This document shows, one piece after another, positions 1-22,925 of a DNA stretch of 24,000 nt. Within the stretch, counting starts at the first letter, position 1. The number at the start of each line of letters is the position of its first letter. The position numbers and the translations under genes are program-made. Below the pieces are notes generated by a model. That model worked only from the letters and a program-made list of their open reading frames with translations, searched no databases and was not told where the DNA came from. The DNA is from Jiangella mangrovi. GTDB taxonomy: Bacteria > Actinomycetota > Actinomycetes > Jiangellales > Jiangellaceae. The stretch is from contig NZ_JACHMM010000001.1 of assembly GCF_014204975.1 (NCBI RefSeq), positions 5,432,037 through 5,456,036 on the forward strand, in the 5' to 3' direction.

Positions 1-689
1 ACCCCGTCGGCACCGAGCGCATCGCCCGCGTCGGCTACGACTACGTCGGCATCGACGCCCAGCACGGCCTCATCGACTACAAGGGCTGGCTGGCCGCACT
101 GCTCGCCATCGAGGCCGGCGGACGCAGCGCGGGCCTGGTGCGGGTGCCGGCCAACGACCTCACCTCTATCGGCCAAGCGCTCGACGCGGGCGCTCACGGC
201 GTCATCGTCCCGCTGGTCGACACCGCCGACCAGGCGGCCGCGGCGGTGCGCGCCTGCCGCTACCCACCCGAGGGCGGGCGCAGCTACGGCCCCATGCGAG
301 CGGGCCTGCGCATCGGCCCGGCGCCGGCCGAGGCCAACGCGCACGTGCTGTGCGCCGTCATGATCGAGACGCTGACCGCGCTCGACAACGTCGAGGCCAT
401 CGCGGCGACGCCCGGGCTCGACGGCATCTATGTCGGGCCGTCCGACCTCACGCTGGCGCTCGGCGGCGCGTCGTCCACCGACCCCGCGTTCGCCGAGGCA
501 CTCGACGAGGCGTGCGGCCGGGTCTGCGCGGCGGCCGCCCAGCGGGGCATCGCGGCCGGCATCCACTGTCCCGACGGCGCGACGGCGAGCCGGCGGCTGG
601 CGCAGGGGTTCACGTTCGCCACGGTCAGCTCCGACCTCGTCCACCTCGAGCAGGCGGCCGCGGCGCACCTGGCGGCGGCCCGGGACTGA
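1..689 (+). CDS. HpcH/HpaI-family aldolase (2,4-dihydroxyhept-2-ene-1,7-dioate aldolase-like); 5' end lies outside the window
   Basis: Frame 3 is open from base 3 (PVGTERIARVGYDYVGIDAQHGLIDYKGW...) and is continuous with the listed ORF, ending at TGA 687-689. The RVPANDLTSIGQALDAGAHGVIVPLVDTADQAAAAVRACRYPPEGGRSYGP and IETLTALDNVEAIAATPGLDGIYVGPSDL blocks are typical of the HpcH/HpaI TIM-barrel aldolase family. GC3 is high. Confidence 0.8.
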   Translation, partial: PVGTERIARVGYDYVGIDAQHGLIDYKGWLAALLAIEAGGRSAGLVRVPANDLTSIGQALDAGAHGVIVPLVDTADQAAAAVRACRYPPEGGRSYGPMRAGLRIGPAPAEANAHVLCAVMIETLTALDNVEAIAATPGLDGIYVGPSDLTLALGGASSTDPAFAEALDEACGRVCAAAAQRGIAAGIHCPDGATASRRLAQGFTFATVSSDLVHLEQAAAAHLAAARD

Positions 690-693
690 CGCC

Positions 694-2796
694 GTGGAGT
701 CGATCGACGAGGCCCTGGTCACCGGGCGACGCGGCCTGCGCACCCGCCCGGGCACGCTGCTGCTCGGCCCCACGGGCGCCCGGCTCTGGGCCGACTACCT
801 CGAGCAACGGCCGGGCTTCGCCGGTGCCATCGACCTCGTGCACAAGCTCAACATCCCGCTGCTGTTCACCGTCACCGGCGTCGACCTGCCCGAGCCGTGG
901 GAGGCCCGCTGGCGGCCGAGCCGGCTGACGGTGTCCGCGGCGGGCCGGCCGGGTTCCGGGGTCGAGTTCACCGAGGACAAGTTCGTCACCTGGGACGACT
1001 GCGCGGTGTCGCGGCAGGTGTGGAGCAACGACGGTCCCGCGCCGGTGACGCTGCGGCTCGAGGTCGACCGGTCCTGGGTCGGCGGCGACGGGTTCGGCTC
1101 GCGGCCGGTCGAGCGGCACGGGTTCACCGTGCTCGCCGTCGTCCGGCCGTCCGACCCAGCGCTCTGGGACGGGCTCGTCCTCCGCCCCGGCGAACGGGCC
1201 GAGTTCGTCGTCGCGGCGGCGCTCGGTCTGGCCGGCACCGAGACCCGACCCGACCTCGAACGTCGCCTCGATACCGCCCTGTCCGCGGAACCTCCGTACG
1301 CCGTCGTCGACCGGCAGCAGCGCGAGTACCAGCGCTGGTTCGACGAGGTGCCGTCCTTCAGCTGCAGCGACCCGGTGCTGACCCGCACCTGGGCGTACCG
1401 GTGGTTCCTGCTGCGGCACAACCTCGCCGTGCCCGGGGTCGGCGGGCTGCGCGACCCGCTGTTCTACGAGGGCCGCGCGCACAAGATGAGCAAGACGCCG
1501 TGGGATCCCGCCGGCTGGGAGTTCAGCAAGCTCATCCCGCTGTCCAGTCCCATGCACCTGCTCGAGGCCCGCTGGCATCCCGACCCGTCGTGGGGCGCCG
1601 GGCTCTGGCGCACGCTGCGGGCCGCCCAGGGCGACGACGGGCTGTTCCGCAGTCGCACGGTCGGCCAGGAGTTCCACGCCTACGCCAACTTCCTCGGCTG
1701 GGCGAGCTACCAGTACGCCCTGGTGCACCGCGACGCCGACGGCGCGGCGGCCATGCTGGCCTCGCTGGCGGCCCAGGTGCGCGGCGAGCGCGCGAAGCTC
1801 GCCACCGGCAACGACGAGCTCCCCATCGAGACCGAGCACATCCTCACCGGCAAGGAGTACCAGCCCAGCTACTGGTCCTTCCACGACTACCCCGCCGACC
1901 CGCGCGACCGGTCCGGCTACACCCCGCTGAAGCGGGTCGACCGCGCCGTCTACCACTACCGCAACGCCCGCGGTGTCGCCGGCCTCGCCCGGCTGCTGGG
2001 CGACGCCGCCGGCGACGGAGCCGGCCTCGCCGCCGAGTTCGACGCACTGGCCGACGCCGTGGCCGCGCAGGTGCTGACCAAGCAGTGGGACCCCGGCACC
2101 GGGTTCTTCCACGACCTGCACCACGCCACCGACCAGCGGTCCCCGGTCCACAACGTCGTCGGCTTCTACCCGTACTGGGCCGGCCTCACGGGCGAGGAGC
2201 ACCTGCCCGGCCTCGACGCGGCGCTTCGGCTGTTCGACACCGGCGCACCGCTGCCGTCCACCGCCCCCGACTGCCCCGTCTACAGCCCCACCGGCCACTG
2301 GCGCGGCGTGTACGTCAAGGGCCGCAACGGCTGCTCGTGGAACGGCCCGACGTGGCCCTACACCAACAGCGTGGTCATCGACGGCGTCGGCGCCACCAGC
2401 CGGCGGTTCGGCCACCGCTACGACGCCGAGTTCGGCCGGCTGCTGCGCTCGTACGCCCTGCTGCACTTCCAGCAGCGCGACGGCCGCACCCCGTACCTCG
2501 TCGAGCACTACGACAGCGAGACCGGCGAGCCCATCAGCGACGAGGCCGACTACCTGCACTCCTACCTCATCGACCTCGTCGTCCGGTACGTCGCCGGCAT
2601 CGAGGCCGAGGCCGACTCCGTCGTCGTCGACCCACTCGACGTCGGGCTCGACTGGTTCGCGCTCACCGGGGTGCGGGTCGCCGGGCACACCGTCGACGTC
2701 GCCTACGACCACGAGCGCGGGCTGCGGGTGTCGGTCGACGGCGCCCCGGCCACCGCCGCGCCGGGGCTCAGCCCACTGACCGTGCCGCTGGCGTGA
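694..2796 (+). CDS. Glycoside hydrolase, (alpha/alpha)6-barrel type (GH63 / MGH1 / trehalase-like)
   Basis: The listed ORF 430..2796 overlaps the aldolase. The first start that does not overlap is GTG 694-696, in frame and 4 nt after the aldolase stop. It gives about 700 aa. The C-terminal half carries motifs in the style of six-hairpin glycosidases (GCSWNGPTWPYTNSVVIDG, PYLVEHYDSETGEPISDE). The family assignment is from motif memory only. Confidence 0.7.
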   Translation: MESIDEALVTGRRGLRTRPGTLLLGPTGARLWADYLEQRPGFAGAIDLVHKLNIPLLFTVTGVDLPEPWEARWRPSRLTVSAAGRPGSGVEFTEDKFVTWDDCAVSRQVWSNDGPAPVTLRLEVDRSWVGGDGFGSRPVERHGFTVLAVVRPSDPALWDGLVLRPGERAEFVVAAALGLAGTETRPDLERRLDTALSAEPPYAVVDRQQREYQRWFDEVPSFSCSDPVLTRTWAYRWFLLRHNLAVPGVGGLRDPLFYEGRAHKMSKTPWDPAGWEFSKLIPLSSPMHLLEARWHPDPSWGAGLWRTLRAAQGDDGLFRSRTVGQEFHAYANFLGWASYQYALVHRDADGAAAMLASLAAQVRGERAKLATGNDELPIETEHILTGKEYQPSYWSFHDYPADPRDRSGYTPLKRVDRAVYHYRNARGVAGLARLLGDAAGDGAGLAAEFDALADAVAAQVLTKQWDPGTGFFHDLHHATDQRSPVHNVVGFYPYWAGLTGEEHLPGLDAALRLFDTGAPLPSTAPDCPVYSPTGHWRGVYVKGRNGCSWNGPTWPYTNSVVIDGVGATSRRFGHRYDAEFGRLLRSYALLHFQQRDGRTPYLVEHYDSETGEPISDEADYLHSYLIDLVVRYVAGIEAEADSVVVDPLDVGLDWFALTGVRVAGHTVDVAYDHERGLRVSVDGAPATAAPGLSPLTVPLA

Positions 2797-3973
2797 TCCG
2801 CGGGCCGATGAACTCCGCCGCCCGCTCCAGCGCCTCGGCCGCCTCGGGCAGGAACGACCAGAACAGATGGAACACGTGCGTCGACACCGGGAACAGCTCG
2901 AGCCGCGCGTCGACGCCGGCCGCCGTCGCGCGGTCGACCAGGGCCCGGCACTCAGGCAGGCCGGGCTCGCCGGTCGCCACCTGGACGAGCAGCGGCGGCA
3001 GTCCGGCGAGGTCGGCGTAGAGCGGGTTGACCAGCGGATCGTCGGCCGGGTGACCGTCCAGATAGAGGCCGGCGTAGCGCTCGGTGAGCTCGACGATCCC
3101 GTTGGGCTGCGGCTCCGTGTGCTCGCGGACCACCCGGCAGGTGAGGTCGACGCCAGGACTGAGCAGCACCACCCGGCCGGGCAGCGCCGCTCCGTCGGCC
3201 CGCAGCCGCAGCAGTGCCGACATCGCCAGCCCGCCGCCCGTCGAGTCGCCGCACAGCGTCACCGCCGCCGGGTCGCCATGCCGTTCGGCCAGCCATCGGA
3301 ACGCCGCCACGACGTCGTCGACGGCGGCCGGGAACGGGTGCTCGGGCGCCAGCCGGTAGTCGGGCACCAGCACGGTCGCGTCGGCCGCGGCGGCCAGCGC
3401 GCCCGCGAGCGGCCGGTACCCGTACGCCGAGCCCACCACGTAGCCGCCGCCGTGCACGTGCAGGATCGACGGCACCTCGCCGACGTCGCGGCCGAACGCC
3501 AGTGAGGGCACTCCCCCGGCCGTGACCGGGCGCATCTCGATGCCGGCCGGCGTCGGGAACTGGGCGCTGAGCTGCTCGTTGGCCGCCCGGAACGCGTCGA
3601 GGTCGGCGACCGCCTCGGCCACCGGGCGCAGCAGCCGCCGGACCTGCTCGTCGGTCTCGCCGCCGACCGACCGCGTGACCTGCACGGCGTCGTCGAGATC
3701 GGCGAGCATGCTCTTGGCGCGGTAGAGCAGCGCCTCGCCGGCCAGCGTGAGCTCGACCCGCTGGGTCGTGCGCCGGAGCAGGTCGACGCGGAGCAGCTTC
3801 TCGAGCGAGCTGATCTGCCGGCTCAGCGCCGGCTGCGACAGGTACAGCCGCTCCGCCGCCCGGCTGAAGTTCAGCTCCTGGGCGACGGCGACGAACGCGC
3901 GCAGGTGCCGCAGCTCGATCGCCTCAGGGGCGCGCGGCAGCTCGATCAGCCGGCCGCGGGGCTCGTTCTCCAT
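2768..3973 (-). CDS. Fusion protein: LysR-type HTH DNA-binding domain plus an alpha/beta-hydrolase fold-3 (HSL/esterase-family) domain
   Basis: 401 aa with ATG at 3973. The N-terminus (LRHLRAFVAVAQELNFSRAAERLYLSQPALSRQISSLEKLLRVDLLRRTTQRVELTLAGEAL) is a canonical LysR HTH plus linker helix. From about residue 150 the protein is an HSL-family hydrolase: oxyanion HVHGGGYVVGS, DYRLAPEHPFPAAVDD, nucleophile elbow GDSTGGGLA and a C-terminal His in THVFH. Its 3' end overlaps the convergent glycosidase gene by 29 nt (2768-2796). Confidence 0.85.
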   Translation of the reverse strand: MENEPRGRLIELPRAPEAIELRHLRAFVAVAQELNFSRAAERLYLSQPALSRQISSLEKLLRVDLLRRTTQRVELTLAGEALLYRAKSMLADLDDAVQVTRSVGGETDEQVRRLLRPVAEAVADLDAFRAANEQLSAQFPTPAGIEMRPVTAGGVPSLAFGRDVGEVPSILHVHGGGYVVGSAYGYRPLAGALAAAADATVLVPDYRLAPEHPFPAAVDDVVAAFRWLAERHGDPAAVTLCGDSTGGGLAMSALLRLRADGAALPGRVVLLSPGVDLTCRVVREHTEPQPNGIVELTERYAGLYLDGHPADDPLVNPLYADLAGLPPLLVQVATGEPGLPECRALVDRATAAGVDARLELFPVSTHVFHLFWSFLPEAAEALERAAEFIGPRITPAARSVG

Positions 3974-4018
3974 GTCCCGAGTATGGCCCAGATCCGGCCC
4001 GCCGGCTCATGCCGACGG

Positions 4019-4035
4019 TGCATGACCTCTATGCA
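4019..4035. promoter_or_regulatory. Imperfect palindrome TGCAT-N7-ATGCA in the divergent intergenic region; candidate operator for the LysR-type fusion regulator
   Basis: tgcat(4019-4023) gacctct atgca(4031-4035), read directly. It lies between the divergent starts at 3973 (-) and 4082 (+). The spacing is not the textbook T-N11-A, so the call is weak. Confidence 0.3.
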
Positions 4036-4081
4036 TGAACGGTCTTTCCCTGCAGGTCAGAGCCGGTGCCAGGGTGTCGGC

Positions 4082-4609
4082 ATGAGCACGTTCCACACTC
4101 TGACGTCGGTCTCCGCGGGCCGGGCGACGCTCGTGCTGCGCGGCCCCGACGGGCCGGTGCACGGCATCATCCTCTGGCCGCGGCCGCCCGTCCTCGACCC
4201 GGCCGACGCGCCGGAGCGCCCGCACCCCGTCGCCGTCGTCGTCTCGCCGCGGTCCGGCGCGCCGGTGCCGGCGGACGCCCTGGCGCGCTCGTTCGCCGCC
4301 GGCGGCTCGCTCGTGCTCTCGCTGACGGTGCCGGGTGACGCGGACGACGCGGCCGCGGCCGGCGCCGTCCGCACCGCGGTCGAGTGGATCGCCGAGCACG
4401 CCCACGAGCTGGACGGCGACCCGCGCCGGCTGACGCTCGTCGGTCAGGCCGGCGTCACCGGGCTGGTCGCCGACGTCGCCGCCACGGCCGACGAGAACGG
4501 CGGGCCCACCATCGGCCAGCTCCTGCTGCTGCGCGCGGGCCCGGACCCGCCACGGCCCGCGCCCGTCACCTACCTCGTACCCCGATCCGAACGGAGAGAG
4601 TCATCATGA
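4082..4609 (+). CDS. Truncated, catalytically degenerate alpha/beta-hydrolase fold-3 paralog (nucleophile elbow GDSAGG replaced by GQAGVTG)
   Basis: In-frame ATG at 4082 (MSTFHTLTSV...) within the listed ORF 3905..4609. GC3 is high throughout. AVEWIAEHAHELDGDPRRLTLVGQAGVTGLVADVAATADENGGPTIGQLLL aligns by eye to the HSL-family region around the catalytic Ser, but Ser is replaced by Ala. The protein ends before the Asp/His region. Its stop overlaps the MFS start (ATGA at 4606-4609). Confidence 0.6.
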   Translation: MSTFHTLTSVSAGRATLVLRGPDGPVHGIILWPRPPVLDPADAPERPHPVAVVVSPRSGAPVPADALARSFAAGGSLVLSLTVPGDADDAAAAGAVRTAVEWIAEHAHELDGDPRRLTLVGQAGVTGLVADVAATADENGGPTIGQLLLLRAGPDPPRPAPVTYLVPRSERRESS

Positions 4610-6144
4610 GCACCGACCTCGACCCTGTGACCCCGGCGGCACCGACTCAGACACCGACCGAGGCGCCGCCGAAGGCCGGCCGTCGCGCGTGGCTCGGGCT
4701 GGCCGTTCTCGCGATGCCGACGCTGCTGCTGTCGCTGGACATCAGCGTGCTGTACCTCGCGCTCCCGGCGCTCAGCGCCGACCTCGGCGTCACGTCGACG
4801 CAGCAGTTGTGGATCAGCGACATCTACTCGTTCATGATCGCCGGATTCCTGGTGGTCATGGGCTCGCTCGGCGACCGGGTCGGACGGCGCAAGCTGCTGC
4901 TGGCCGGCGGCGCGGCGTTCGCGGCCTGCTCGGCGCTGGCGGCGTACGCGTCCAGCCCGGAGATGCTGATCGTCAGCCGGGCGCTGCTGGGCATCGCGGG
5001 CGCCACGCTGATGCCGTCGACCATGGCCCTGATCCGGACGCTGTTCCCCGACCCGGCGCAGATGGCGGTCGCGCTGAGCATCTGGTTCTCGTGCTTCATG
5101 GGCGGCATGACCATCGGGCCGCTGGTCGGCGGCGTGCTGCTGGAGCACTTCTGGTGGGGCTCGGCGTTCCTGCTGGGCGTGCCGGTCATGGTCCTGCTGC
5201 TGGTCCTCGGGCCGGTGCTGCTGCCGGAGCACCGCGAGGACACCGCGCCGGGCCGGTTGGACCTGGCGAGCGCGGGGCTCTGCGTCGCGGCGATCCTGCC
5301 GGTCATCTACGGCCTCAAGGAGATCGCGCGCGACGGCGTCAGCATCGGCGCCGTCGTGGCGATGGCCGCGGGGCTGGCGCTGGGGGTCGCCTTCGTCCGG
5401 CGTCAGCGGCGCCTCGCCGACCCGCTGCTCGACCTGCGGCTGTTCGCGAACCGCAGATTCACGGTGTCGCTGACGGCGTTCCTGCTCACCGGCGTCGTCA
5501 TGGCCGGCGTCTCCTTCGCCGCCGCGCAGTACATGCAGCTCGTGCTCGGGTTGTCGCCGCTGGAGGCCGGGCTCTGGCTGATCCCGTCGAACGTGGCCAT
5601 GGTGGCGGCGACGCTGATCGCGCCGCGGCTGCTGCAGCGGCACCAGGCGGCCGACCTGCTCGCCGGCGGGCTGGCCGTGTCCGGCGCCGGCCTGCTGCTG
5701 CTCACACTGGCCGGCACGGACTCACTGGGCCTGCAGGTCACGGCGATGACGGTGGCGGCGGCCGGCATCGGTGTGCCGATGGCGGTCGTGACGAACCTGA
5801 TCCTCGCCGCGGCGCCGCCGGAGCGGGCCGGGTCGGCGGCCTCGCTGTCGGAGACCGCCGGCGAGTTCGGCATCGCCCTGGGCATCGCCTCGCTCGGGAG
5901 CGTCACGATCGCCGTCTACAGCGGACGCGTCGGCGAGCTGCTCCCGGCCGGGACGCCGTCGTCGCTGACGGCGGCCGCGCAGGAGAGCCTGGCGGCGGTG
6001 ACGTCGGCCGACGGCGCGGGCGCAGCGGTCCTCGAGGCCGCGAGGACCGCGTTCACCAGCGGGTTCAACGTCGTCGGCGGCATCGGCGGCGCGGTGCTGC
6101 TGCTGGTCGCCGTCGTCGCCCGGCTGGCCCTGCGCGAGAAGTGA
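4606..6144 (+). CDS. MFS transporter, DHA2 (14-TMS drug:H+ antiporter, EmrB/QacA-like) family
   Basis: ATG 4606 is preceded by ggagagag (4593-4600). The protein is 512 aa, with MFS motif A (GSLGDRVGRRKLLLAG) and many hydrophobic segments. The length fits 14-TMS DHA2 pumps. The upstream part of the listed ORF (from 4384) is Arg/Pro-rich junk that overlaps the previous gene. Confidence 0.85.
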   Translation: MSTDLDPVTPAAPTQTPTEAPPKAGRRAWLGLAVLAMPTLLLSLDISVLYLALPALSADLGVTSTQQLWISDIYSFMIAGFLVVMGSLGDRVGRRKLLLAGGAAFAACSALAAYASSPEMLIVSRALLGIAGATLMPSTMALIRTLFPDPAQMAVALSIWFSCFMGGMTIGPLVGGVLLEHFWWGSAFLLGVPVMVLLLVLGPVLLPEHREDTAPGRLDLASAGLCVAAILPVIYGLKEIARDGVSIGAVVAMAAGLALGVAFVRRQRRLADPLLDLRLFANRRFTVSLTAFLLTGVVMAGVSFAAAQYMQLVLGLSPLEAGLWLIPSNVAMVAATLIAPRLLQRHQAADLLAGGLAVSGAGLLLLTLAGTDSLGLQVTAMTVAAAGIGVPMAVVTNLILAAAPPERAGSAASLSETAGEFGIALGIASLGSVTIAVYSGRVGELLPAGTPSSLTAAAQESLAAVTSADGAGAAVLEAARTAFTSGFNVVGGIGGAVLLLVAVVARLALREK

Positions 6145-9447: not shown

Positions 9448-10410
9448 TCAGCTCGTTTCGATGACCTGACGCTCCCCGATGCGCACGGTCGCGGTGGTGG
9501 CGGGGTCCGGTGGGTCGAGCGTTCCTTCGGCCCCGGTGGACGCGGTCCACGTGGCGGCCCAGTTCGCGGTCGCGGTGACGGTGTAGGCGCTGCTGGTCTG
9601 CGTGTAGGCGTGGCCGCAGCTCGGTGATGGACGGACGCCGAGGCTCGGCTCGTAGGGTGTGCCGGGTTCTTCGCACGTGACGGTAGTGCCGTCGCCCATG
9701 TCCCACGCGACGTGGTCGACCTCGGCCGTGACGGTGACCGTGACGCCGCCGACCGTAGCTGATTCCTCTCGTGGTCCCCAGGTCGTCGGGCCGGCGTTCG
9801 TCACCCACATCCACACGGGCGCGCCCACGAGTCCGATGCTCTGTGGATCGGTCTCGAGCGGGCGCGGCGCGAGCCCCACCTCGAGCGGCTCGAAACTCAT
9901 GCCATCGAGGATCTGCTGAGCAACCTCCTCCGGATCGACCACGATCACCGGTGTTTCGCCCGGCGCCTCGGCGAGCCACATGTATCCGTGGTCGCCCCAG
10001 TGGATGCCTCCTGCTACACCCGCCAGCTTGCGCCACTCAAACATCCAGCCCTCTGCCGGATCACCGGTCCAGTAGCCGAGGTGGCTCAACGTCCCATCCG
10101 GCGGCCGGTGAAGCTCGTTCTCGGCGGGCGACAACCGCTTCAGATATCGATCGAGTGCATCGCTAAATTCGTAGCCCGCGATTGTGCAAGGTGCTGGAAC
10201 CACCTGCGGATCGTCCTGACTGCAATGAGTCAGATACGCATCGTCGTCGGTGTCCTCATCGGTGGGAGGTTCCTCGTAAACACAACCTGAACCATTGAAG
10301 TAGGTGCCCGGAGGGCATCCGTTCGCCCTCGGCGCGTCCGACGATTCGGAGGGCTCGGCTGGCGCGGCCAGCGCCATCCCCAACGCGAGAGCCCACGCTG
10401 CTGCTAGCAA
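9448..10410 (-). CDS. Secreted hypothetical protein with a C-terminal PKD-like (WDMGDG...CGHAY) domain
   Basis: The ORF runs 9448..10506. ATG 10506 would overlap the upstream gene by 103 nt, so I favour in-frame TTG 10410, which gives a 7-nt overlap; the start remains uncertain. The hydrophobic leader is LLAAAWALALGMALAAPA. The N-terminal region is Cys-rich. The C-terminus (VAWDMGDGTTVTCEEPGTPY...CGHAYTQTSSAYTVTATANW) resembles the PKD-domain signature. Confidence 0.6.
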   Translation of the reverse strand: MLAAAWALALGMALAAPAEPSESSDAPRANGCPPGTYFNGSGCVYEEPPTDEDTDDDAYLTHCSQDDPQVVPAPCTIAGYEFSDALDRYLKRLSPAENELHRPPDGTLSHLGYWTGDPAEGWMFEWRKLAGVAGGIHWGDHGYMWLAEAPGETPVIVVDPEEVAQQILDGMSFEPLEVGLAPRPLETDPQSIGLVGAPVWMWVTNAGPTTWGPREESATVGGVTVTVTAEVDHVAWDMGDGTTVTCEEPGTPYEPSLGVRPSPSCGHAYTQTSSAYTVTATANWAATWTASTGAEGTLDPPDPATTATVRIGERQVIETS

Positions 10411-11042
10411 GGCTCGTTCCGCGTCAACTCGATCGATTGCACCCTCCAGCCTGCACGTTGCGTGCCACCGGTCTCCGACTCGTGATGGAGCCAAGTCATC
10501 GCCCATTGCTGGTAGAGGTCTGGCTCGAATGTGAGGTCGGCCTCCCCGCCGTCATACGTCACGAATTTGAGCGCCGTCAAATCAAGGCACGCCGAAGAGG
10601 TCGCGCTGGCAGGGCTAGTGCCGTCCGCGTCCGATGAGAGATCGCCCACCGCATGAGTTCGAATCGCAGTCGCGGCCCGTTGCTCCATCGCGGAGTTCCG
10701 CCACGCGGCCACCCAATTGGTCAGCTCTAGATTCGCTTGCCCTTCGACAGGCCAGGTGCCCACCAAGTCCGCGTTCCAGGTGCTCTCCGCAGCGTCTCGG
10801 TAGTCGCTGGCGTTGATCTTGAAGGCGTCCCAGGAAGCGACCAGGTCTTCGAAGGTCGCCTTGATCTCGGCCTCGGCCTCTTCCTCCGGCGTGAGGGCCG
10901 GTGGCGCGGTGACCGCAGGCTCCGTCGTCGCCGGCGAAGGAGGCGGCTCGGGGTCCGAGTCCCCACCGCAGGCAGCCAGGGCAGCCACGGCGACCACACC
11001 GAGCACCGCCACCATCGCCGTCGCGCGACGCCTTGCGAACAT
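10404..11042 (-). CDS. Lipoprotein, function unknown
   Basis: Internal ATG 11042 is preceded by gggagg (reverse complement of 11049-11054). It gives MFARRRATAMVAVLGVVAVAALAACGGDSD, a classic lipoprotein signal with lipobox LAAC, followed by a Pro/Glu-rich linker. The longer listed ORF (to 11156) adds an implausible N-terminus. Confidence 0.7.
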   Translation of the reverse strand: MFARRRATAMVAVLGVVAVAALAACGGDSDPEPPPSPATTEPAVTAPPALTPEEEAEAEIKATFEDLVASWDAFKINASDYRDAAESTWNADLVGTWPVEGQANLELTNWVAAWRNSAMEQRAATAIRTHAVGDLSSDADGTSPASATSSACLDLTALKFVTYDGGEADLTFEPDLYQQWAMTWLHHESETGGTQRAGWRVQSIELTRNEPC

Positions 11043-11173
11043 CCCGAGAACCTCCCACACCCTGAACCGAGCCGATGATCTTACGCACTCACCGCAACCC
11101 CTCCTGTCATCTATAGGTGCTTTCCCGACCCCAAACGTGACAGCCACCGCTGGCAAGACCGTATGACGATGGA

Positions 11174-11179
11174 TAAGAT
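11174..11179 (+). promoter_or_regulatory. Possible -10 hexamer (TAAGAT) for a leaderless transcript of the toxin-antitoxin operon
   Basis: taagat at 11174-11179 ends 7 nt before the A of ATG 11186. No Shine-Dalgarno is visible between them (gctggt). The -35 is poor (tggcaa, 17-nt spacer). Confidence 0.3.
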
Positions 11180-11185
11180 GCTGGT

Positions 11186-11431
11186 ATGGCCAAGGAGAAG
11201 ATGACCGTCACCCTCGATCCGTCGACCCTGGCCGACATCGACGCGGACGCGCGGCAGGCGGGGTTGAACCGCTCGGAGTTCGTCGAGCGGGCGCTGCGGC
11301 GCGAGCACTACCGCCGCCTCCTCGCACAGGCAGGTCGCCCCCCGCACAGCCCAAGCAGCCAGAACGACCAGAGCCACCAGAGCGACCAGCAGCTGCGTGA
11401 CCTCCTCGCCTGGCAGCGCAACCCGTCGTGA
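11186..11431 (+). CDS. Ribbon-helix-helix (CopG/MetJ-type) antitoxin
   Basis: 81 aa. MTVTLDPSTLADIDADARQAGLNRSEFVERALRRE is a typical RHH beta-strand plus two helices. Its stop overlaps the next start (GTGA at 11428-11431). Confidence 0.7.
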   Translation: MAKEKMTVTLDPSTLADIDADARQAGLNRSEFVERALRREHYRRLLAQAGRPPHSPSSQNDQSHQSDQQLRDLLAWQRNPS

Positions 11432-11712
11432 ATCCGGGTGAGATCTGGCGGCTCGAGGACGGGTCGCTACGGATCGTGCTGAGCAACGCGATCTACAACA
11501 CCAGCCAACTGAACCAGGTGATCACCGCGGTCGTCGGCCCGCCGCCGGAGCAGTTCGAGCCGTTCGCCGTCGCCACCGATGCGGGCACGATCTTCGCCGA
11601 CCGCGTCGCCATGCATCCGCGGCACTGGCTCACCCAGCACGTTGCCACCATCAGCGTCCGCCAGCTCGCCGACACCCGCCGGCACCTCACCTTCCTCCTG
11701 CACGACGACTGA
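11428..11712 (+). CDS. MazF/PemK-like toxin (putative endoribonuclease) of a type II TA pair
   Basis: 94 aa with GTG 11428. The N-terminal PGEIWRL...LRIVLSN pattern resembles the GD(I/V)W...VV(S/T) opening of PemK/MazF-fold toxins. The gene is small and translationally coupled to an RHH gene. Fold assignment is tentative. Confidence 0.5.
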   Translation: MNPGEIWRLEDGSLRIVLSNAIYNTSQLNQVITAVVGPPPEQFEPFAVATDAGTIFADRVAMHPRHWLTQHVATISVRQLADTRRHLTFLLHDD

Positions 11713-11901
11713 CGACGCCTGACGGCAACCGGCGACTCATCGACGATGGCGCCAGCCTCCGGTTCGCGCCGATAAATCCGTTGCGCCCTTCGCGCAAGCC
11801 GAGCAGCATTGTCGTCATGCAGCGCATCGTGAATCCCACGCGGAAACCAGGCCGTCAACGCCTGGCGATGCGGCTGCCCCTGAGCAGCAGGGCGATGCGT
11901 A

Positions 11902-11998
11902 GGCGAGGGCTACTTCGGATTCGTATGTTCTGGGTTCGAATCCCAGCGGTCTGCGGACCGTAGCTCAATCCGGAAGAGCGACGAACTGTTCCTTCGCC
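11902..11998 (+). ncRNA. yrlA: YrlA-type bacterial Y RNA: circularly permuted tRNA-like module. True 5'/3' transcript ends are not determined.
   Basis: Read directly from the sequence:
- anticodon-like stem ttcgt 11920-11924 pairs with acgaa 11981-11985
- variable region atgtt 11925-11929
- T-arm ctggg 11930-11934 / ttcgaat 11935-11941 / cccag 11942-11946
- acceptor-like hairpin cggtc 11947-11951 / tgcg / gaccg 11956-11960
- ta 11961-11962, equivalent to U8-A9
- D-arm gctc 11963-11966 / aatccggaa / gagc 11976-11979
- g 11980, equivalent to position 26
- closing helix ggcgagg 11902-11908 with cc(t)tcgcc 11991-11998
It lies 160 nt upstream of the TROVE/Ro60 gene on the same strand. Confidence 0.75.
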
Positions 11999-12011
11999 GC
12001 CTCTTGTTCTC

Positions 12012-12157: not shown

Positions 12158-13735
12158 ATGAGCAAGTTCGACCGCGCCAGCAAGGCCGCCGCCATGCTGA
12201 CGAGCCCGGTCCGGGCGCTCCGCAACGCCCGCAGCCGCACCGTCACCCACGAAGGCGCGCCCGCCCTCGTCCGCGACACGAAGGGTGAGCTGTTCCTCCT
12301 GGCCGTCACCAACCTGGCCGGCGAGGACACCTTCTATGAGGACGGCGACACCCGCGACGAGCGGTTCCGCACGCTCGTCCACGCGGCCACCGCCGAGGAC
12401 CCCGAGTGGGTCGCGCGCCTCGTTTCCTGGCTTCGGACCACCGCGAACCTGCGTTCGGCGCCGGTTGTCGCGGCGGTGGAGTACGTGCGCGCCGGCGGGC
12501 CGCACGGACGCCGGGTGGTCGACGGCGCGTTGCTGCGGGCGGACGAGCCGGCCGAGGTGCTCGCCTACTACACGTCGCGGTACGGACGCGCGTTGCCGCA
12601 GCCGATCAAGCGGGGCGTCGCCGACGCCGCGCGCCGGCTGTACACCGAGCGGGCGGCGCTGAAGTACGACGGCGTCTCGCGCGCCTGGCGTATGGCCGAC
12701 GTCCTCGAGCTGTGCCACGTGCGGCCACGCGACGACGCGCAGTCGGCGTTGTTCCGCTGGCTGCTCGACCGCCGGCACGGCCGCGCCGACACCGTCGTTC
12801 CGGCAGACCGGTTGCCCGTCGTCCACGCGAACACGCAGCTCAACGCCGTCCCCCAGAACGAGCGCAGGCAGCACCTCCGCACCACGGCGCTCGCCGACGC
12901 CGGACTCACCTGGGAGGCGCTCGCGGGCTGGCTCGGCGGGCCGATGGACCGGACGGCGTGGGAGGCGGTCATCCCGTCCATGGGCTACATGGCGCTGCTG
13001 CGCAACCTGCGCAACTTCGACGAGGCCGGGGTGAGCGACGCCGTCGCCGAGACGGTCGCCGCCAGGTTGGCCGACCCGGAGCAGGTGCGCCGCTCGCGGC
13101 AGTTCCCGTTCCGGTTCGTCGCCGCGTACCGCAACGCACCGTCGTTGCGGTGGGCGTACGCGCTGGACAAGGCGATCGGGACGGCGACGGCGAACGTGCC
13201 GGCCTTCGCGGGGCGCACGCTCGTGCTCGTCGACACGTCGGCGTCGATGACGCAGCGGGCGTTCTCGCAGCGGTCGTCGATGTCGCCGGTCGAGGCCGCC
13301 GCGGTGTTCGGGGTCGCGCTGGCCAAGCGGGGCAACGCCGTCGACCTGTACGGGTTCGCCGACGGCGTGTTCGCGCACTGGATCGCGCGCAGGACATCGC
13401 TGCTGACGGAGGCGGACCGGCTGGTCGGGCGGGTCGGCGAGGCCGGTCACGGCACGCGCATCGCCGAGGCGGTGCGCGCGACCTACCGCCGGCACGACCG
13501 CGTGGTGATCGTGACCGACATGCAGACCTTCCCGGACGGCGCCGGGCGCGGTGGCGACCCGGTCGCCGCCGTACCGGCAAAGGTCCCGGTCTACGGGTTC
13601 AACCTCGGCGGGTATCGCCCGACGGTGGTGGCCGCCGGCCGGGCGAACCGGCACGAGTTCGGCGGTCTCAACGACGCCACGTTCACCCTGCTCAGCCTGC
13701 TCGAGAACGGCCGCTCCGCCGGCTGGCCGTTCTAG
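12158..13735 (+). CDS. rsr: Ro60 ortholog: TROVE-domain plus von Willebrand A (vWA) domain protein (Rsr)
   Basis: 525 aa. ATG 12158 follows ggaaggaggg (12141-12150). The N-terminal roughly 350 aa is TROVE-like (LAVTNLAGEDTFYEDGDTRDERF..., WVARLVSWLRTTANLRSAPVVAAVEY, MGYMALLRNLRNFDEAGV). The C-terminal vWA has an intact MIDAS DxSxS (VDTSAS, codons 13232-13246). Confidence 0.9.
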   Translation: MSKFDRASKAAAMLTSPVRALRNARSRTVTHEGAPALVRDTKGELFLLAVTNLAGEDTFYEDGDTRDERFRTLVHAATAEDPEWVARLVSWLRTTANLRSAPVVAAVEYVRAGGPHGRRVVDGALLRADEPAEVLAYYTSRYGRALPQPIKRGVADAARRLYTERAALKYDGVSRAWRMADVLELCHVRPRDDAQSALFRWLLDRRHGRADTVVPADRLPVVHANTQLNAVPQNERRQHLRTTALADAGLTWEALAGWLGGPMDRTAWEAVIPSMGYMALLRNLRNFDEAGVSDAVAETVAARLADPEQVRRSRQFPFRFVAAYRNAPSLRWAYALDKAIGTATANVPAFAGRTLVLVDTSASMTQRAFSQRSSMSPVEAAAVFGVALAKRGNAVDLYGFADGVFAHWIARRTSLLTEADRLVGRVGEAGHGTRIAEAVRATYRRHDRVVIVTDMQTFPDGAGRGGDPVAAVPAKVPVYGFNLGGYRPTVVAAGRANRHEFGGLNDATFTLLSLLENGRSAGWPF

Positions 13736-17514: not shown

Positions 17515-17845
17515 GGCGCTCACCTCCTAGGAACAGGAGTCCTCGCTGCTCAACCTACTCCCGTAAGCCGCGCCTGACCCGACCGAGCCGCTGACCCATG
17601 CGACGACGGCTCCCATGTGGGGAGAGCGAGATCTACCTGCGGGGTGTCGGCGCACGCGCTGATGACGGCATGCCGGATGGCCCTTTGGTGGGGCGCACTC
17701 TGCGTCACTCGCGGCGAAATGACGCATCTGCAGGGGCGCGACGCGACGCGAAGCAGGTTAATCCGACCCGTCACCGATGATGCGGCCCTGCCCTGCCCCG
17801 GCGCTAGTGTCACCCCATGACACGAGGCGACGGGAGGCCGGCGAC

Positions 17846-18529
17846 GTGACCCCAGATCAATGGACCCCAGATCACGTTCGTCGGCAGGTCATGCGGCAGG
17901 CTCGATACGCACTGAACGTCTCAGTGCTCGACGAGAATCGGGTCCCACCCGAGGGCCCGTTCGATGTTGCTCTGACAAACGGACTCCTCGCCATCGTCGC
18001 GGCGATCGATCCCGCGGCCGTGATCGACAAGAGGGGCTTCACCCTTCCGGCTAGCGTCCTGCTGCCCAAGGCCGTCGCGCTCGGCCTCAGCGTCAACCAG
18101 GCGACGTTAGCGGAGGGGCTCGATCTGACCCAGCCGCTGCGACATGGCCGAGCCGATGACGAGTGGATTCAACTCGGATCGAAGCACCTCACAGCTCTGC
18201 GTGAACTTGACGAGTTCGACGGCCTCGAAGTGCTTCACCACGTTGGAGCCCACCGAACGGTGGACGACATGATGGTGACGCTGTTCTACGAGAAGGCACG
18301 GGCTTACGCGGAACGGGACGTTCGCCGAGTCAAGGATCTGCTCGATGTGATGGACCCGGAGGAGTGCAACGAGTGTTTCCGGCGCACCTTCGTTCCGCTC
18401 GGCTACGACAACAGCGGCGGCACGATGACAGTCGGGCTGTGCATCGCCTGCGGGCACCAGCGCGACGAAGACACTGCGTGGGGCATGTACATGGCAGAGC
18501 AGTGGGAGTTGAGATGGCAGCACGAGTGA
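17846..18529 (+). CDS. Hypothetical protein with a C-terminal CxxC...CxxC zinc ribbon
   Basis: GTG 17846 is in frame and follows gggagg (17832-17837) by 8 nt, giving 227 aa. I recognise no family. The C-terminus has CNEC, then 23 residues, then CIAC. G+C is lower than in the flanks. Confidence 0.65.
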   Translation: MTPDQWTPDHVRRQVMRQARYALNVSVLDENRVPPEGPFDVALTNGLLAIVAAIDPAAVIDKRGFTLPASVLLPKAVALGLSVNQATLAEGLDLTQPLRHGRADDEWIQLGSKHLTALRELDEFDGLEVLHHVGAHRTVDDMMVTLFYEKARAYAERDVRRVKDLLDVMDPEECNECFRRTFVPLGYDNSGGTMTVGLCIACGHQRDEDTAWGMYMAEQWELRWQHE

Positions 18530-18757
18530 CCTCGAGCTGCAGTGCAGACAACCTTCACCACGCCTGGGAAGAGTCCACCGCCAAGGCGGCGAAATGACAC
18601 GGGCGGACATGGTGGTTCAGCGAACGCGGACGCAAGCGGCGGGGTGAATTGAATCTGGCTTCACCCAAGAGGCAGTGCATTCGTGCCGTGAATCGGTTCG
18701 CCGGTGTTGTGTCGTGGGTGTCTGCCACCCTGGGTTCCCATTGAAAGGGGTCGACGC

Positions 18758-18970
18758 ATGCCTAGATACTGCGTGAACAGGAACGCCCAGCCGAATGGCG
18801 ACCACGAGGTCCACGACGTCTCGGCCAACAAATGGTGCCTGCCTACATCCGCCAACCGGGTGGACCTCGGGCACCACGAGACCTGCTCCCCTGCCGTGCA
18901 GGCCGCCAAGATCCACTTCAGCCAGGTGAACAGCTGTCGTTGGTGCGCCCCGGCCTGCCACACGAGCTAG
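18758..18970 (+). CDS. 70-aa Cys/His-rich small protein (MPRYCVNRNAQPNGDHEVH...CRWCAPACHTS), function unknown
   Basis: ATG 18758 follows gaaagggg (18743-18750) by 7 nt. It has six Cys (5, 27, 43, 60, 63, 67) and six His (16, 19, 39, 40, 53, 68). I believe I have seen the N-terminal YxVNxNAQxNGDHEVH and C-terminal CxxCxxxCHT pattern in small hypothetical proteins from unrelated bacteria, but I cannot name a family. Confidence 0.65.
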   Translation: MPRYCVNRNAQPNGDHEVHDVSANKWCLPTSANRVDLGHHETCSPAVQAAKIHFSQVNSCRWCAPACHTS

Positions 18971-19437
18971 AGCGTGTCTGATAAATGTCGGGTCCAGGAG
19001 ATGACGGCGTTGAGGACGACGGCGGCGCGGTAGACGATGGCGAGCTTGTCGAACCGGGTAGCCAGTCCTCGCCACTGTTTGAGCTGGTTGAAGGAGCGTT
19101 CGACGACGTTGCGGCCTCGGTAGTCGTCCGGGTCGAACGCCGGTGGGCGTCCGCCGCGTGAGCCGCGTCGTTTGCGGTGCCCGGCCTGGTCGGCGGGTTC
19201 GGGGATCACGGCCTTGATGCCGCGGGCGCGCAGGTGGGCGCGGATCGCGCGAGACGAGTACGCCTTGTCCCCGCGCAGCGCGTCGGGCCGGGTCCTGGGC
19301 CGCCCGGCCGGGCGCGCCACTTGCAGGTGCCCCAGCAGCGGCAGCAATGCCGGCGAGTCGCCGGCCTGGCCGGCGCTGAGCGCGATCACCAACGGCAGTC
19401 CGTGCCCGTCGACGAGCTGGTGGACCTTGGTCGACAT
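18967..19437 (-). CDS. IS5-family transposase, DDE catalytic part (orfB), +1 frame relative to orfA
   Basis: This frame is open upstream of the listed ATG and reads ...EPPDHGLGRSRGGMSTKVHQLVDGHGLPL..., the family-typical GRSRGG(L)TTK(V/I)H. It contains GDKAYSS and NVVERSFNQLKQWRGLATRFDK (DDE region). Its TAG stop is the complement of the junction CTAG. Confidence 0.85.
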   Translation of the reverse strand: MSTKVHQLVDGHGLPLVIALSAGQAGDSPALLPLLGHLQVARPAGRPRTRPDALRGDKAYSSRAIRAHLRARGIKAVIPEPADQAGHRKRRGSRGGRPPAFDPDDYRGRNVVERSFNQLKQWRGLATRFDKLAIVYRAAVVLNAVISWTRHLSDTL

Positions 19438-19909
19438 CCCGCCGCGGGAGCGGCCCAGACCGTGGTCAGGCGGCTCGCTGGTCGAGAACGTGTAACTCGA
19501 CCCAGCCCCCCGCGAGGCGTTTCATGTTCGTGGCGTGTTGATGAGCCCGAGCGATCGTGGAATCCACCGACACCGACCAGCCCAGCTGCCCAGCCTGGTC
19601 CGCTGCCGCGGTCAACCGGGCCAGCACCGCGTCCCAGGTGCCGTCGCCGGCCAGGCGCCGATGCCATGTCCACACCGTCTGCCACGGCCCAAACACGCCC
19701 GGCAGGTCCCGCCAGGCGATCCCACACCGATACCGGTACACGATCGCCTCCACCATCGCCCGCGCGTCGGAGAACGGGCGCCCCCGCCGACCCGTACGAG
19801 CCGGAAGAAGATCAGCGATCAACGCCCACTGCGCATCAGAGAGCAACTGAAACCGAGACACGACCCCGAGCATCCCCGACACGATCCCGGAACTTTGTCA
19901 GACACGCTC
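18970..19909 (-). mobile_element. IS5-family insertion sequence (IS427-like subgroup), about 0.94 kb, inserted in a CTAG
   Basis: The terminal inverted repeats are left gagcgtgtctgataaatgtc and right (reverse complement) gagcgtgtctgacaaagttc. The first 12 of 12 bases match, and 16 of 20 overall. CTAG is present at both junctions (18967-18970 and 19909-19912). The duplication is therefore TA or CTAG, and the ends are ambiguous by 1 nt. It carries two overlapping transposase ORFs. Confidence 0.9.
19466..19882 (-). CDS. IS5-family transposase, N-terminal part (orfA)
   Basis: 138 aa. FQLLSDAQWALIADLLP...RGRPFSDARAMVEAIVYRYRCGIAWRDLP...WQTVWTWHRRLAGDGTWD is the conserved N-terminal domain of IS5/IS427-type transposases. 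Confidence 0.85.
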   Translation of the reverse strand: MSGMLGVVSRFQLLSDAQWALIADLLPARTGRRGRPFSDARAMVEAIVYRYRCGIAWRDLPGVFGPWQTVWTWHRRLAGDGTWDAVLARLTAAADQAGQLGWSVSVDSTIARAHQHATNMKRLAGGWVELHVLDQRAA

Positions 19910-20111
19910 TAGCTGTCGCGGCTCTTGGTGGACAGAGTCGCCACGGGCTCGAGTCCGCATCCGAGCCAGCCGTGTACGCGGCGGTAAGACACAAGTCGGA
20001 TCAAGGGGGTCACCTGAACGTGCAACAGACCCCTGCCCGTCCGTGCCCGAACGCGCTATGGGCGAGCGCGCCGTCCTCGAAGGTCCCCGACTGAGTCGTG
20101 CGCCGCCTAGC

Positions 20112-21854: not shown

Positions 21855-22076
21855 AGCCAGGCGTGGGGCACATGAGTCTTTGGGAAACGGACGGTGGAAG
21901 GGACGATCGCACACTCGCATCGCAGAGATCCGACCTGCCGAACTCCGCTCGCCGAGGCGCGACTCGACGGACGTCTCGGCTGCGGGATCGACGTAGCCCA
22001 TTATGGGCGGAAAGACGTCGTGGAGTGCCTACATTCCCCTTGAGCTGCGATGATCCCGAGCCGCAGCCCAGCTCGG

Positions 22077-22925
22077 TCAGCCGATGGAGCGGAGCTGCGG
22101 GAGCAGCTCGGCCGCCGCCGTCGCCTGCGCCTCGGCGGAGCCGGGGCGGGTGATGAGGATGATGTCGTCGGCGCCCACGGCGGCGAATGCCTCCACCCGC
22201 GAAAGCACGTCGGCCACATCGTCGCTCAACCGGAGCTGCATGGTGCGCCGGATGGCCGCGGGATCCCGCCCCACCGAAGCACAGTGAGCATCCAAGACAC
22301 CCGACAACTCCGCGAACTCCGAAGGCTCGACGCCGGTCGAGTTCCAGGCGTCGGCGTAGAGGGCGGTGATGCGGAGGGTTCGCTTGCGGCCGCTGCCGCC
22401 GATCCAGATGGGCGGGTAGGGCGACTGCACCGGCTTCGGCTCCGCAACCGCGTCGGTCACCTGATAGTGCGTACCCGCGAAAGTCGTCCGCGGCGACGTC
22501 CACAGCGACCGGATGATCTGGCAGGCCTCCTCGAGCCGGTCGAGCCGCTCCCCCGCCGTCCCGAACTGAAGGCCGAACATCGTGTGCTCGTACTCGGCCC
22601 ATGCTGCGCCGATGCCGAACTCGAGCCGGCCGGTGGACAGGTGATCAACCGTAGTGGCGATCTTGGCGAGCACGCCAGGGTGACGGTACGTGTTGCCCGT
22701 CACCATGCAGCCGATGCGCACCCGGGTGGTCGACTCGGCCATGGCGGCAAGCAGGGCCCACGCGTCGAAGATGTCACCGTCGGGGTCGCCGCCGATGGTG
22801 GCGAAGTGGTCCATGTTCCACACGTGGTCGAAGCCCGCCTCGTCGGCGATGCGCCAGACGGCGCGGTACTCGTCGATGGGGGCCTGCTGGCTCAGCTTCA
22901 GTCCGTAGCGCACGCCGTCAGTCAA
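22077..22925 (-). CDS. LLM-class (luciferase-like) F420-dependent oxidoreductase
   Basis: 282 aa. The start is TTG 22925, or alternatively GTG 22913 (MRYGLKLSQ...). FDHVWNMDHF, RVRIGCMVTGNTYRHPGVLAKIATTVDHLSTGRLEFGIGAAW is the typical LLM TIM-barrel signature. Confidence 0.8.
   Translation of the reverse strand: MTDGVRYGLKLSQQAPIDEYRAVWRIADEAGFDHVWNMDHFATIGGDPDGDIFDAWALLAAMAESTTRVRIGCMVTGNTYRHPGVLAKIATTVDHLSTGRLEFGIGAAWAEYEHTMFGLQFGTAGERLDRLEEACQIIRSLWTSPRTTFAGTHYQVTDAVAEPKPVQSPYPPIWIGGSGRKRTLRITALYADAWNSTGVEPSEFAELSGVLDAHCASVGRDPAAIRRTMQLRLSDDVADVLSRVEAFAAVGADDIILITRPGSAEAQATAAAELLPQLRSIG

Follow-up and report, generated by a model that had tools for sequence, protein, structure and literature searches.

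Does the DNA-binding head of a LysR-type transcriptional regulator (LTTR) have to be driven by the effector domain that is usual for this family, or can an unrelated domain take its place? This question is raised by a gene of Jiangella mangrovi that lies in a stretch of 24,000 nucleotides (nt) of contig NZ_JACHMM010000001.1 (positions 5,432,037 to 5,456,036), called below the window, in whose numbering all coordinates are given. By the textbook definition, all LTTRs sense their ligands with one fold, a periplasmic-binding-protein-like effector domain. The 2024 review 'Fundamentals and Exceptions of the LysR-type Transcriptional Regulators' (PMC11495319) gives the same single fold for ligand sensing and does not mention the fusion described here. 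The J. mangrovi gene (2768–3973 including the stop codon, minus strand, ATG start) encodes 401 amino acids (aa), in which a LysR DNA-binding domain (DBD) is joined to a hydrolase of the hormone-sensitive lipase (HSL) type. The interpretation that we favor, with moderate confidence, is that of a one-component regulator, in which a LysR DBD is fused to a competent HSL-type esterase that replaces the effector domain, and to which an operator and a divergent gene module belong.

Domain searches and alignments bear out the architecture that the original prediction, made from the bases of the window, had proposed for this protein: a 401-aa open reading frame (ORF) with a LysR helix-turn-helix (HTH), a linker and an HSL hydrolase, and with no effector domain. 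Pfam finds HTH_1 at residues 21–80 (E 4e–22, 78.4 bits versus a cutoff of 26.6) and Abhydrolase_3 at residues 170–369 (E 1.1e–50), while LysR_substrate gives no match in the protein even at E ≤ 1. As LysR_substrate is a defining feature of LTTRs, canonical LTTR would be the wrong name for the product, and LTTR-DBD fusion is the proper one. Residues 19–104 (3662–3919; like all parts of the gene, on the minus strand) correspond to the LTTR winged HTH with its linker helix: their best alignment is with the DBD and linker helix of BenM (BenM residues 1–86, E 1.3e–15). Residue 1 of BenM, where canonical LTTRs such as BenM begin, is residue 19 of the fusion in this alignment. It is preceded by an N-terminal extension, LPRAPEAIE (residues 12–20, 3914–3940), that stands before LTTR helix 1 and follows a family motif, [LF]P.AP[DE][AG][IV]E, present in 40 or more loci; P13, A15, A18 and E20 are invariant in the family alignment, and the extension is disordered in an AlphaFold model.

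Existing annotation reflects only one or the other half of the protein, which is named in databases either 'LysR family transcriptional regulator' or 'alpha/beta hydrolase fold domain-containing protein'. The nearest NCBIfam entries are the N-termini of many LTTR models for residues 19–120 and the GESAG-motif HSL subfamily for residues 118–392 (199 bits, under the cutoff of 430); since subfamily scores stay under cutoff, no equivalog-level function can be transferred to the fusion. The label 'epsilon-lactone hydrolase' in JGI records is automatic and gives no basis for naming a ligand.

An open reading frame of this kind could result from an insertion or deletion, introduced by sequencing or assembly, that joins two separate genes. 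Relatives with two separate genes at this position were sought, and the fusion was found in every relative examined, as the original prediction of a genuine fusion had it. Among 5.8 billion clustered proteins, the best 120 matches were inspected, and all of them carry both PF00126 and PF07859 (386–448 aa, 55–100% identical, 93–100% query coverage); the match at 100% identity is a J. mangrovi protein. Loci were collected by a scan of one genome per species, which gave 40, and by contig look-ups, which gave four, one of them a duplicate; the resulting 43 distinct fetched loci, together with the J. mangrovi window, make up the fused set (n = 44). The two-domain protein is thus the rule in the best 120 matches and the 43 loci, far beyond chance. 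For an artefact we found no supporting point; the same frame, of ∼390–430 aa, recurs in all these matches and loci, which come from independent assemblies, and the junction is a conserved helix, so we give this explanation a negligible probability.

The full-length fusion occurs in three classes of Actinomycetota, the Actinomycetes, Thermoleophilia and Acidimicrobiia, in genera that include Jiangella, Nocardioides, Nonomuraea, Nocardia, Kribbella, Pseudonocardia, Thermoactinospora and Solirubrobacter, and many of the loci are in metagenome-assembled genomes of Solirubrobacterales, Thermoleophilaceae and Acidimicrobiia. Outside Actinomycetota, every match of the species scan covers the esterase part only. 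A neighbor-joining tree of esterase domains groups all 44 fused sequences in one clade, with the 40 stand-alone sequences all outside it, a pattern that a single ancient fusion would explain. When the fusion-specific N-terminal 170 residues were searched exhaustively with HMMER, 42 representatives of 50%-identity clusters came back at E ≤ 1e–30; the fused family is modest in size and coherent. The same search also brought up many proteins of 610–660 aa (P0165, P0173, P0178 and others) with two LysR-HTH matches each, at ∼1–85 and 320–420, which from these matches look like tandem 'double LTTR' polypeptides.

What kind of enzyme, then, has taken the place of the effector domain? Residues 113–392 (2798–3637) are an HSL-family (family IV) esterase domain. 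With phmmer it matches EstD11 (7at3) over residues 113–389 (E 8e–59), and the alignment starts at EstD11 residue 14, inside cap subdomain 1; with Foldseek the model of the fusion matches EstD11 (7at0) at E 4e–27 with 41% identity and a target-normalised TM-score of 0.84 over 289 columns. The nearest solved structures, EstD11, Est8, E40, EstE5 and EstE7, are all HSL-family, and by the EstD11 alignment and Foldseek the fusion has the N-terminal helical cap and the insertion between beta6 and beta7 that cover the active site in this family.

The motifs that had first drawn attention to this half of the protein are all in their places: HGGG, the oxyanion-hole motif, at residues 174–177 (3443–3454), DYRLAPEHPFP at 205–215, GDSTGG with the nucleophile elbow GDSTG and its Ser244 at 242–246 (3236–3250), and GEPGLPE from 335. 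The original prediction took the last of these, which stands where an Asp is usual, as a sign that the triad may be incomplete, and on this point it has to be corrected. EstD11 has the triad Ser144-Glu238-His268 and an HGGG oxyanion motif (PMC7905190), and Glu336 of the fusion (2966–2968) aligns with its Glu238, so that TGE faces TAE, while His366 (2876–2878) stands opposite its His268. Over the 44 fused sequences Ser is kept in every one, the H, G and G of the oxyanion motif, with His174 among them, in 43 (all three are invariant in the family alignment), and the catalytic His also in 43; as the acid, 42 sequences have Asp and two have Glu, namely the J. mangrovi protein and a J. ureilytica copy. 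By its sequence, therefore, the esterase half looks catalytically competent with a complete triad.

These counts also bear on the idea of a non-catalytic receptor like plant GID1, in which the hydrolase fold would only bind a ligand and hydrolysis would be irrelevant or lost. It draws some support from the Glu at a position where the fused family usually has Asp and from pocket residues that are remodelled relative to stand-alone esterases. Dead receptors, however, typically have a triad residue lost, whereas Ser, His, HGG and an acidic residue are kept in 43–44 of the 44 fused sequences. Moreover, a Glu is nothing unusual at this place: the nearest solved enzymes normally have it as their acid (PMC7905190), and so do 37 of the 40 stand-alone relatives. 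With Ser, acid and His all retained, a dead receptor of the GID1 type is improbable, and better parallels are catalytically active receptors of the D14/KAI2 kind or else trigger enzymes.

The pocket carries a signature of its own. Nine esterase positions are conserved to at least 90% in the fused clade and are rare in stand-alone relatives; the fused clade alone has invariant residues at six of them (A183, G185, A192, W372, S373 and F374), the last three within the stretch FWSFLPEA (residues 371–378, 2840–2863). In EstD11 the substrate contacts include His86 and Phe273 (PMC7905190), and in the alignment A183 and G185 adjoin the equivalent of His86, W372–F374 that of Phe273. From these clade-specific invariant residues we infer a specific ligand or substrate that is common to the whole family. 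That the esterase pocket is also the signal input of a regulator seems to us slightly more probable than not.

How could a signal pass from such a pocket to DNA? The AlphaFold monomer model of the fusion (me2259a42b9e4) has a mean predicted local distance difference test score (pLDDT) of 81.6, with ∼85–98 in the esterase, and places the parts in the order winged HTH, one uninterrupted helix and esterase. The helix spans residues 77–120 (3614–3745). Its first part, residues 77–104, is the BenM linker helix by alignment and helical in the model, with a role in dimerisation suggested by homology, and from there it runs on into cap subdomain 1 of the esterase. In EstD11 this mobile subdomain comprises residues 2–43 (PMC7905190), which correspond to ∼102–143 of the fusion in the alignment. 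Since the LTTR linker helix enters the pocket-gating cap directly, a movement at the active site could plausibly be passed on mechanically to the DNA-binding domains along one predicted helix.

As hardly any variation is seen in the HTH across the family, a shared operator was sought upstream of 42 loci. The top dyad is ATGC-N7-GCAT, which occurs exactly in 13 loci versus a shuffle maximum of 9, and a module anchored on it aligns in ∼39 of the 42. In the sense of the fusion gene the module reads AAGGGAAAGgCCGAtcg.GCAtgaC, one base, and then GT..TGC-N7-GCAT.AC; the full family dyad, GTCATGC-N7-GCATGAC, is a T-N11-A box. In the window two boxes can be recognized. Site B (4006–4026), CTCATGC-cgacggt-GCATGAC, has one mismatch to the consensus and is a putative recognition site by dyad enrichment and conserved position; its center lies at –66 from the start of the divergent small gene and at –43 from the start of the fusion gene. 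Site A (4028–4048), TCTATGC-atgaacg-GTCTTTC, is a putative activation site with one consensus half-site and a CTTTCCC block, centered at –44 from the start of the small gene and thus over the –35 position of its promoter. A layout with a recognition site and an activation site near –66 and –44 is that of benA-type LTTR promoters, and the T-N11-A dyad, the divergent promoter and the centers of both putative sites agree with an LTTR operator. The divergent arrangement noted in the original prediction is therefore borne out, now with a conserved predicted operator between the genes.

Site B is the sole above-chance copy of the operator in the whole window. Matches with two mismatches at 5091 and 6865 were considered as further sites and dropped, being within chance expectation. 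The palindrome at 4019–4035, to which attention had been called before, is present in the sequence as TGCAT-N7-ATGCA, but it is an everted junction made of one half-site of B and one of A. As an operator it was rejected, as the GCAT-N7-ATGC register is found in only four of 42 loci and its two arms stand too close together for an LTTR dimer; it is probably not the recognition unit.

Sites A and B are spaced by 22 bp. Two sites at such a distance, together with the second interface that an LTTR needs to form tetramers, speak for yet another view of the esterase domain, namely that it is only an oligomerisation scaffold which replaces the dimer interface of the effector domain in a regulator that is constitutive and takes no input from a ligand. 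Dimers are common among HSL esterases, which can be counted for it as well. This view leaves the invariance of catalytic and pocket residues over a phylum-wide clade unexplained, and we rate it low, even a little below the non-catalytic receptor.

The positions of the dyad relative to both genes point to promoters of a particular kind. A –10-like hexamer, CATACT (3980–3985, minus strand), stands 6 nt ahead of the ATG of the fusion gene, which ends at 3973. A hexamer of this kind is found 19–20 nt past the dyad in 29 of 37 loci (CATACT in 16, GATAAT in six and GATGAT in four), and its distance to the first in-frame ATG or GTG is 6–7 nt in 34 of the 37. On the other side, 19 of 28 loci have the center of the dyad 65–66 nt ahead of the divergent start codon, CTTTCCC is invariant at –37 to –32 of the divergent gene, and in loci where the dyad center is 66 nt from the start an element TGCGAnnnT occurs at a fixed distance. 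In J. mangrovi this extended –10-like element is TGC+CAGGGT (TGCCAGGGT; 4067–4075, plus strand), 6 nt ahead of the ATG of the small gene. Judged from this conservation, both the fusion gene and the divergent gene appear to be leaderless. With site B lying across the predicted –35 region of the promoter that serves the regulator itself, autorepression would be possible. An RNA element between the genes is not supported, since Rfam gave no match in the whole window at the gathering threshold.

Opposite the fusion gene lies the small gene just mentioned (4082–4609, plus strand), which encodes 175 aa and has a weak Abhydrolase_3 match; a DHA2 MFS pump follows it, and this pair of neighbors is the one that the original prediction named. 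The prediction was also right that this hydrolase is degenerate; what it missed is that the gene is a conserved partner of the fusion and that the pump is only one of several interchangeable cargoes. A word-indexed search with the 175-aa protein found four relatives, a profile search ∼47 short homologues. In tblastn with this ORF the homologues stand immediately divergent from the fusion gene at an equal distance, and with an iterative hidden Markov model (HMM) such a homologue was placed there in 31 of 42 loci. The reciprocal test gave the same picture: four of four independently found small homologues divergently adjoin a 408-aa protein with HTH_1 and Abhydrolase_3, and in two of these four loci a RibD_C gene overlaps the stop codon of the small gene.

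By tblastn, HMM, Pfam and model, this partner is a truncated, dead HSL-like core that comprises beta1–beta6. Abhydrolase_3 is matched in 27 of 28 family members, and hhalign places the family profile on residues 144–286 of the fusion with a probability of 95%. HGGG is absent from the family, the serine of GxSxG is replaced (GAGTG, GEGAG, GQAGV; the last is the J. mangrovi form), there is no catalytic His, and most copies end after about beta6. The model of the J. mangrovi protein (pLDDT 77.6) has beta1–beta6, three helices and a disordered tail, and its best Foldseek matches are HSL esterases of which it covers about half the length. Sequence and model thus agree on a truncated pseudo-esterase that is predicted to be catalytically dead. 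A 248-aa protein of Thermoactinospora rubra (L002:5585–6331) carries both Abhydrolase_3 and DUF1330 and is encoded downstream of a RibD_C gene facing the fusion gene; it seems to be a partner variant with another domain attached.

The gene behind the partner varies. In J. mangrovi it encodes a QepA/LfrA-like DHA2 MFS efflux pump (4606–6144, plus strand), whose ATG overlaps the TGA of the partner gene (ATGA). Clustering of neighbors on the divergent side gave three Pfam-verified families, ECF sigma factors, RibD_C reductases and MFS transporters; the gene after the small gene is of the MFS type in eight loci, an ECF sigma factor in seven, RibD_C in three and something else in 11. Where the small gene is missing, the operator module faces the RibD_C, sigma factor or MFS gene directly. 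We also considered the small protein as an anti-sigma factor; it precedes an ECF sigma gene in seven loci, but this adjacency is all that speaks for such a role, and elsewhere MFS or RibD_C genes follow it, so the role was discarded. The wider surroundings of fused loci often hold MBL-fold hydrolases, methyltransferases, glyoxalase/bleomycin-resistance-like proteins, and TetR regulators with MFS pumps (detoxification-type genes at L004:8265–9893 and at L085 and L088:4500–4887; TetR genes in L085, L086 and L088). Such surroundings may hint at a xenobiotic context. On the other side, an MGH1-like glycoside hydrolase ORF (430–2796, plus strand) converges on the fusion gene and shares 29 nt of its 3′ end with it (2768–2796), whereas in J. 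asiatica the two genes are 25 nt apart.

Does the protein control its neighbors, or is it an enzyme that regulates mainly itself? According to the second possibility, which is the main rival to the interpretation given above, metabolic or detoxifying hydrolysis is the main job of the protein, the LysR head only autoregulates, as in PutA or BirA, and the divergent genes are incidental. The strictly conserved catalytic apparatus, the overlap of the dyad with the gene's own –35 region and the variation of the cargo genes all agree with it. The operator geometry, however, is fixed to the divergent start (–66 and –44) in most loci, even where RibD_C, sigma factor or MFS genes have been swapped in, which argues that the divergent promoter is controlled too. 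On balance we find the self-regulating enzyme unlikely, though it deserves serious attention. That the fusion protein is a functional DNA-binding regulator of the divergent module is the part of our interpretation in which we have high confidence.

The one-component regulator could then work as follows. A dimer of the fusion protein would bind site B and so cover the –35 region of the leaderless promoter from which its own gene is read, with repression as the outcome, while a second dimer at site A would control the divergent leaderless promoter. The latter would drive the pseudo-esterase gene and the variable cargo, which is the DHA2 efflux pump here and an ECF sigma factor or RibD_C reductase elsewhere. 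A specific ester or lactone, bound or turned over in the esterase pocket, would move the cap; the linker helix, which is one with the cap, would carry this movement on to the DNA-binding domains, and their new position would switch the promoter. The output would be a stress or detoxification response by way of efflux pump, sigma factor or reductase; the types of cargo genes suggest that a toxic or signalling ester or lactone is what the cell responds to.

A bolder version can be put forward, in which the regulator is gated by catalysis itself, the pseudo-esterase acts together with it and the whole two-gene cassette is a portable sensor. Here acylation or hydrolysis at Ser244 would move cap subdomain 1 and let the DNA-binding dimers slide between the –66 and –44 sites, as in a bacterial counterpart of the hydrolysis-dependent D14/KAI2 receptors that is wired straight to DNA. 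The pseudo-esterase would pair with the esterase domain of the regulator as a co-regulator, an anti-regulator or a feedback element, and the cassette would have been connected to an efflux pump in some lineages and to an ECF sigma factor or a reductase in others. With all its parts taken together this version is tentative, and we doubt that it will hold in full.

Several observations weigh against our interpretation of the locus. A triad so strictly conserved would suit a protein that is primarily an enzyme just as well as a sensor. The HTH part of the AlphaFold model is of moderate confidence (pLDDT ∼50–73). The promoters and leaderless starts are predicted from conservation alone, and a scan of 2600–4700 for E. 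coli-type promoters and terminators was empty, a result that is uninformative for an actinobacterium with 74% GC. The block AAGGGAAAGGCCGA in site A, which on the partner strand is CTTTCCC at the –35 position of that gene, is more conserved than the LTTR dyad; this is more than is typical for a degenerate activation site, so another factor may bind CTTTCCC/GGGAAAG or a special promoter element may lie there. The partner gene is missing from 11 of 42 loci in the iterative HMM search, and within Jiangella it is weakly constrained, with dN/dS of 0.44–0.84 versus 0.28–0.39 for the fusion gene, a comparison in which high GC bias at third codon positions probably depresses dS. Because of this fast evolution the importance of the partner in the J. 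mangrovi genome is uncertain, though its ORF persists across classes. Finally, a literature search aimed at LysR-HTH/esterase fusions found no description and no published experiment; its coverage of journals was partial, and prior work may exist.

Other features of the window concern its composition and one further locus. GC content is ∼74% for the window and ∼0.74 through most of it, and falls to 0.62–0.66 at 10000–12000 and 18000–22000. No Pfam match was found for the larger ORFs in these parts, such as those at 9448–10506, 10404–11156, 17777–18529, 19177–20094 and 21595–22602, and the low-GC segments may have been acquired horizontally. A gene at 12158–13735 (plus strand) encodes a TROVE-domain (Ro60/Rsr-like) protein of 525 aa (Pfam E 3.9e–16). 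Directly ahead of it, at 11900–12006 (plus strand), there is a match to YrlA (Y RNA-like, RF02553) over the full model, 1–114, with E 1.5e–9 and 50.3 bits, which is under the gathering score of 69. The pair is probably an Rsr/Y-RNA locus in Jiangella.

What would such a regulator mean for the families from which it is assembled? It would imply that an unrelated and seemingly active domain can drive a LysR head which keeps the classical logic of a two-site operator, a combination that neither LTTR nor alpha/beta-hydrolase specialists would expect. If the esterase is the sensor, the module would be a prokaryotic alpha/beta-hydrolase receptor coupled directly to transcription and tractable by experiment: with a predicted operator, both promoters, the catalytic serine and the partner defined, mutants and reporters can be designed at once. 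Biosensors for esters or lactones might be built on it as a new chassis. With its conserved dead-esterase partner it would offer a possible pairing of a pseudoenzyme with a regulator, and the variable cargo suggests a sensing cassette that has been re-used across lineages.

Comparison with known systems places the two ends of the protein in different company. With classical LTTRs, of which BenM, CatM and CbnR are closest, the fusion shares the HTH_1 winged HTH with linker helix and the divergent gene arrangement, as well as the predicted high-symmetry site near –65 with a less symmetric one near –44 over the –35 region and a dyad that lies over the regulator's promoter. Its dyad is built like that of BenM, with 4-bp cores spaced by N7 in a T-N11-A box, ATGC-N7-GCAT here versus ATAC-N7-GTAT in BenM as given in the 2024 review (PMC11495319). 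Unlike classical LTTRs, it has an esterase instead of the type 2 periplasmic-binding-protein-like effector domain and an extra conserved N-terminal extension of ∼18 residues; in the model its linker helix enters the next domain with no hinge, and both promoters appear leaderless.

The other half resembles the Ser-Glu-His esterases of the HSL family, EstD11, E40, Est8 and EstE5/EstE7, in its HGGG, GDSxG, Glu and His and in its fold (target-normalised TM-score 0.84–0.86), and it is 41% identical to EstD11 over cap and core. Esterases of the EstD11 type, however, are stand-alone proteins of ∼300 aa with no DNA-binding domain, and unlike stand-alone HSL esterases the fused clade has invariant pocket residues of its own and mostly Asp as the acid.

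Enzyme-fused one-component regulators are already an established concept. In the trigger enzymes PutA, BirA and NadR one polypeptide holds a DNA-binding domain and an active enzyme, with an operator over its own promoter, and the fusion, by its sequence, likewise joins a DNA-binding domain to a competent enzyme domain in one chain. PutA, BirA and NadR differ from it in having other DNA-binding folds and other enzyme chemistries, and no example of an esterase-based trigger enzyme with a DNA-binding domain came up in the literature searches. In its proposed use of an alpha/beta-hydrolase pocket for the perception of a small molecule the fusion would resemble the plant hormone receptors GID1 and D14/KAI2 and the bacterial RsbQ, all of which act through protein partners and have no fused DNA-binding domain. 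GID1 derives from the HSL family and has no catalytic His, whereas the fusion keeps His366; D14/KAI2 retain an active triad, and D14, KAI2 and RsbQ belong to a different alpha/beta-hydrolase subfamily from the fusion esterase. By analogy, then, the DNA end of the J. mangrovi protein would work like an LTTR, and its sensing end like a trigger enzyme or an active alpha/beta-hydrolase receptor of the D14/KAI2 type.

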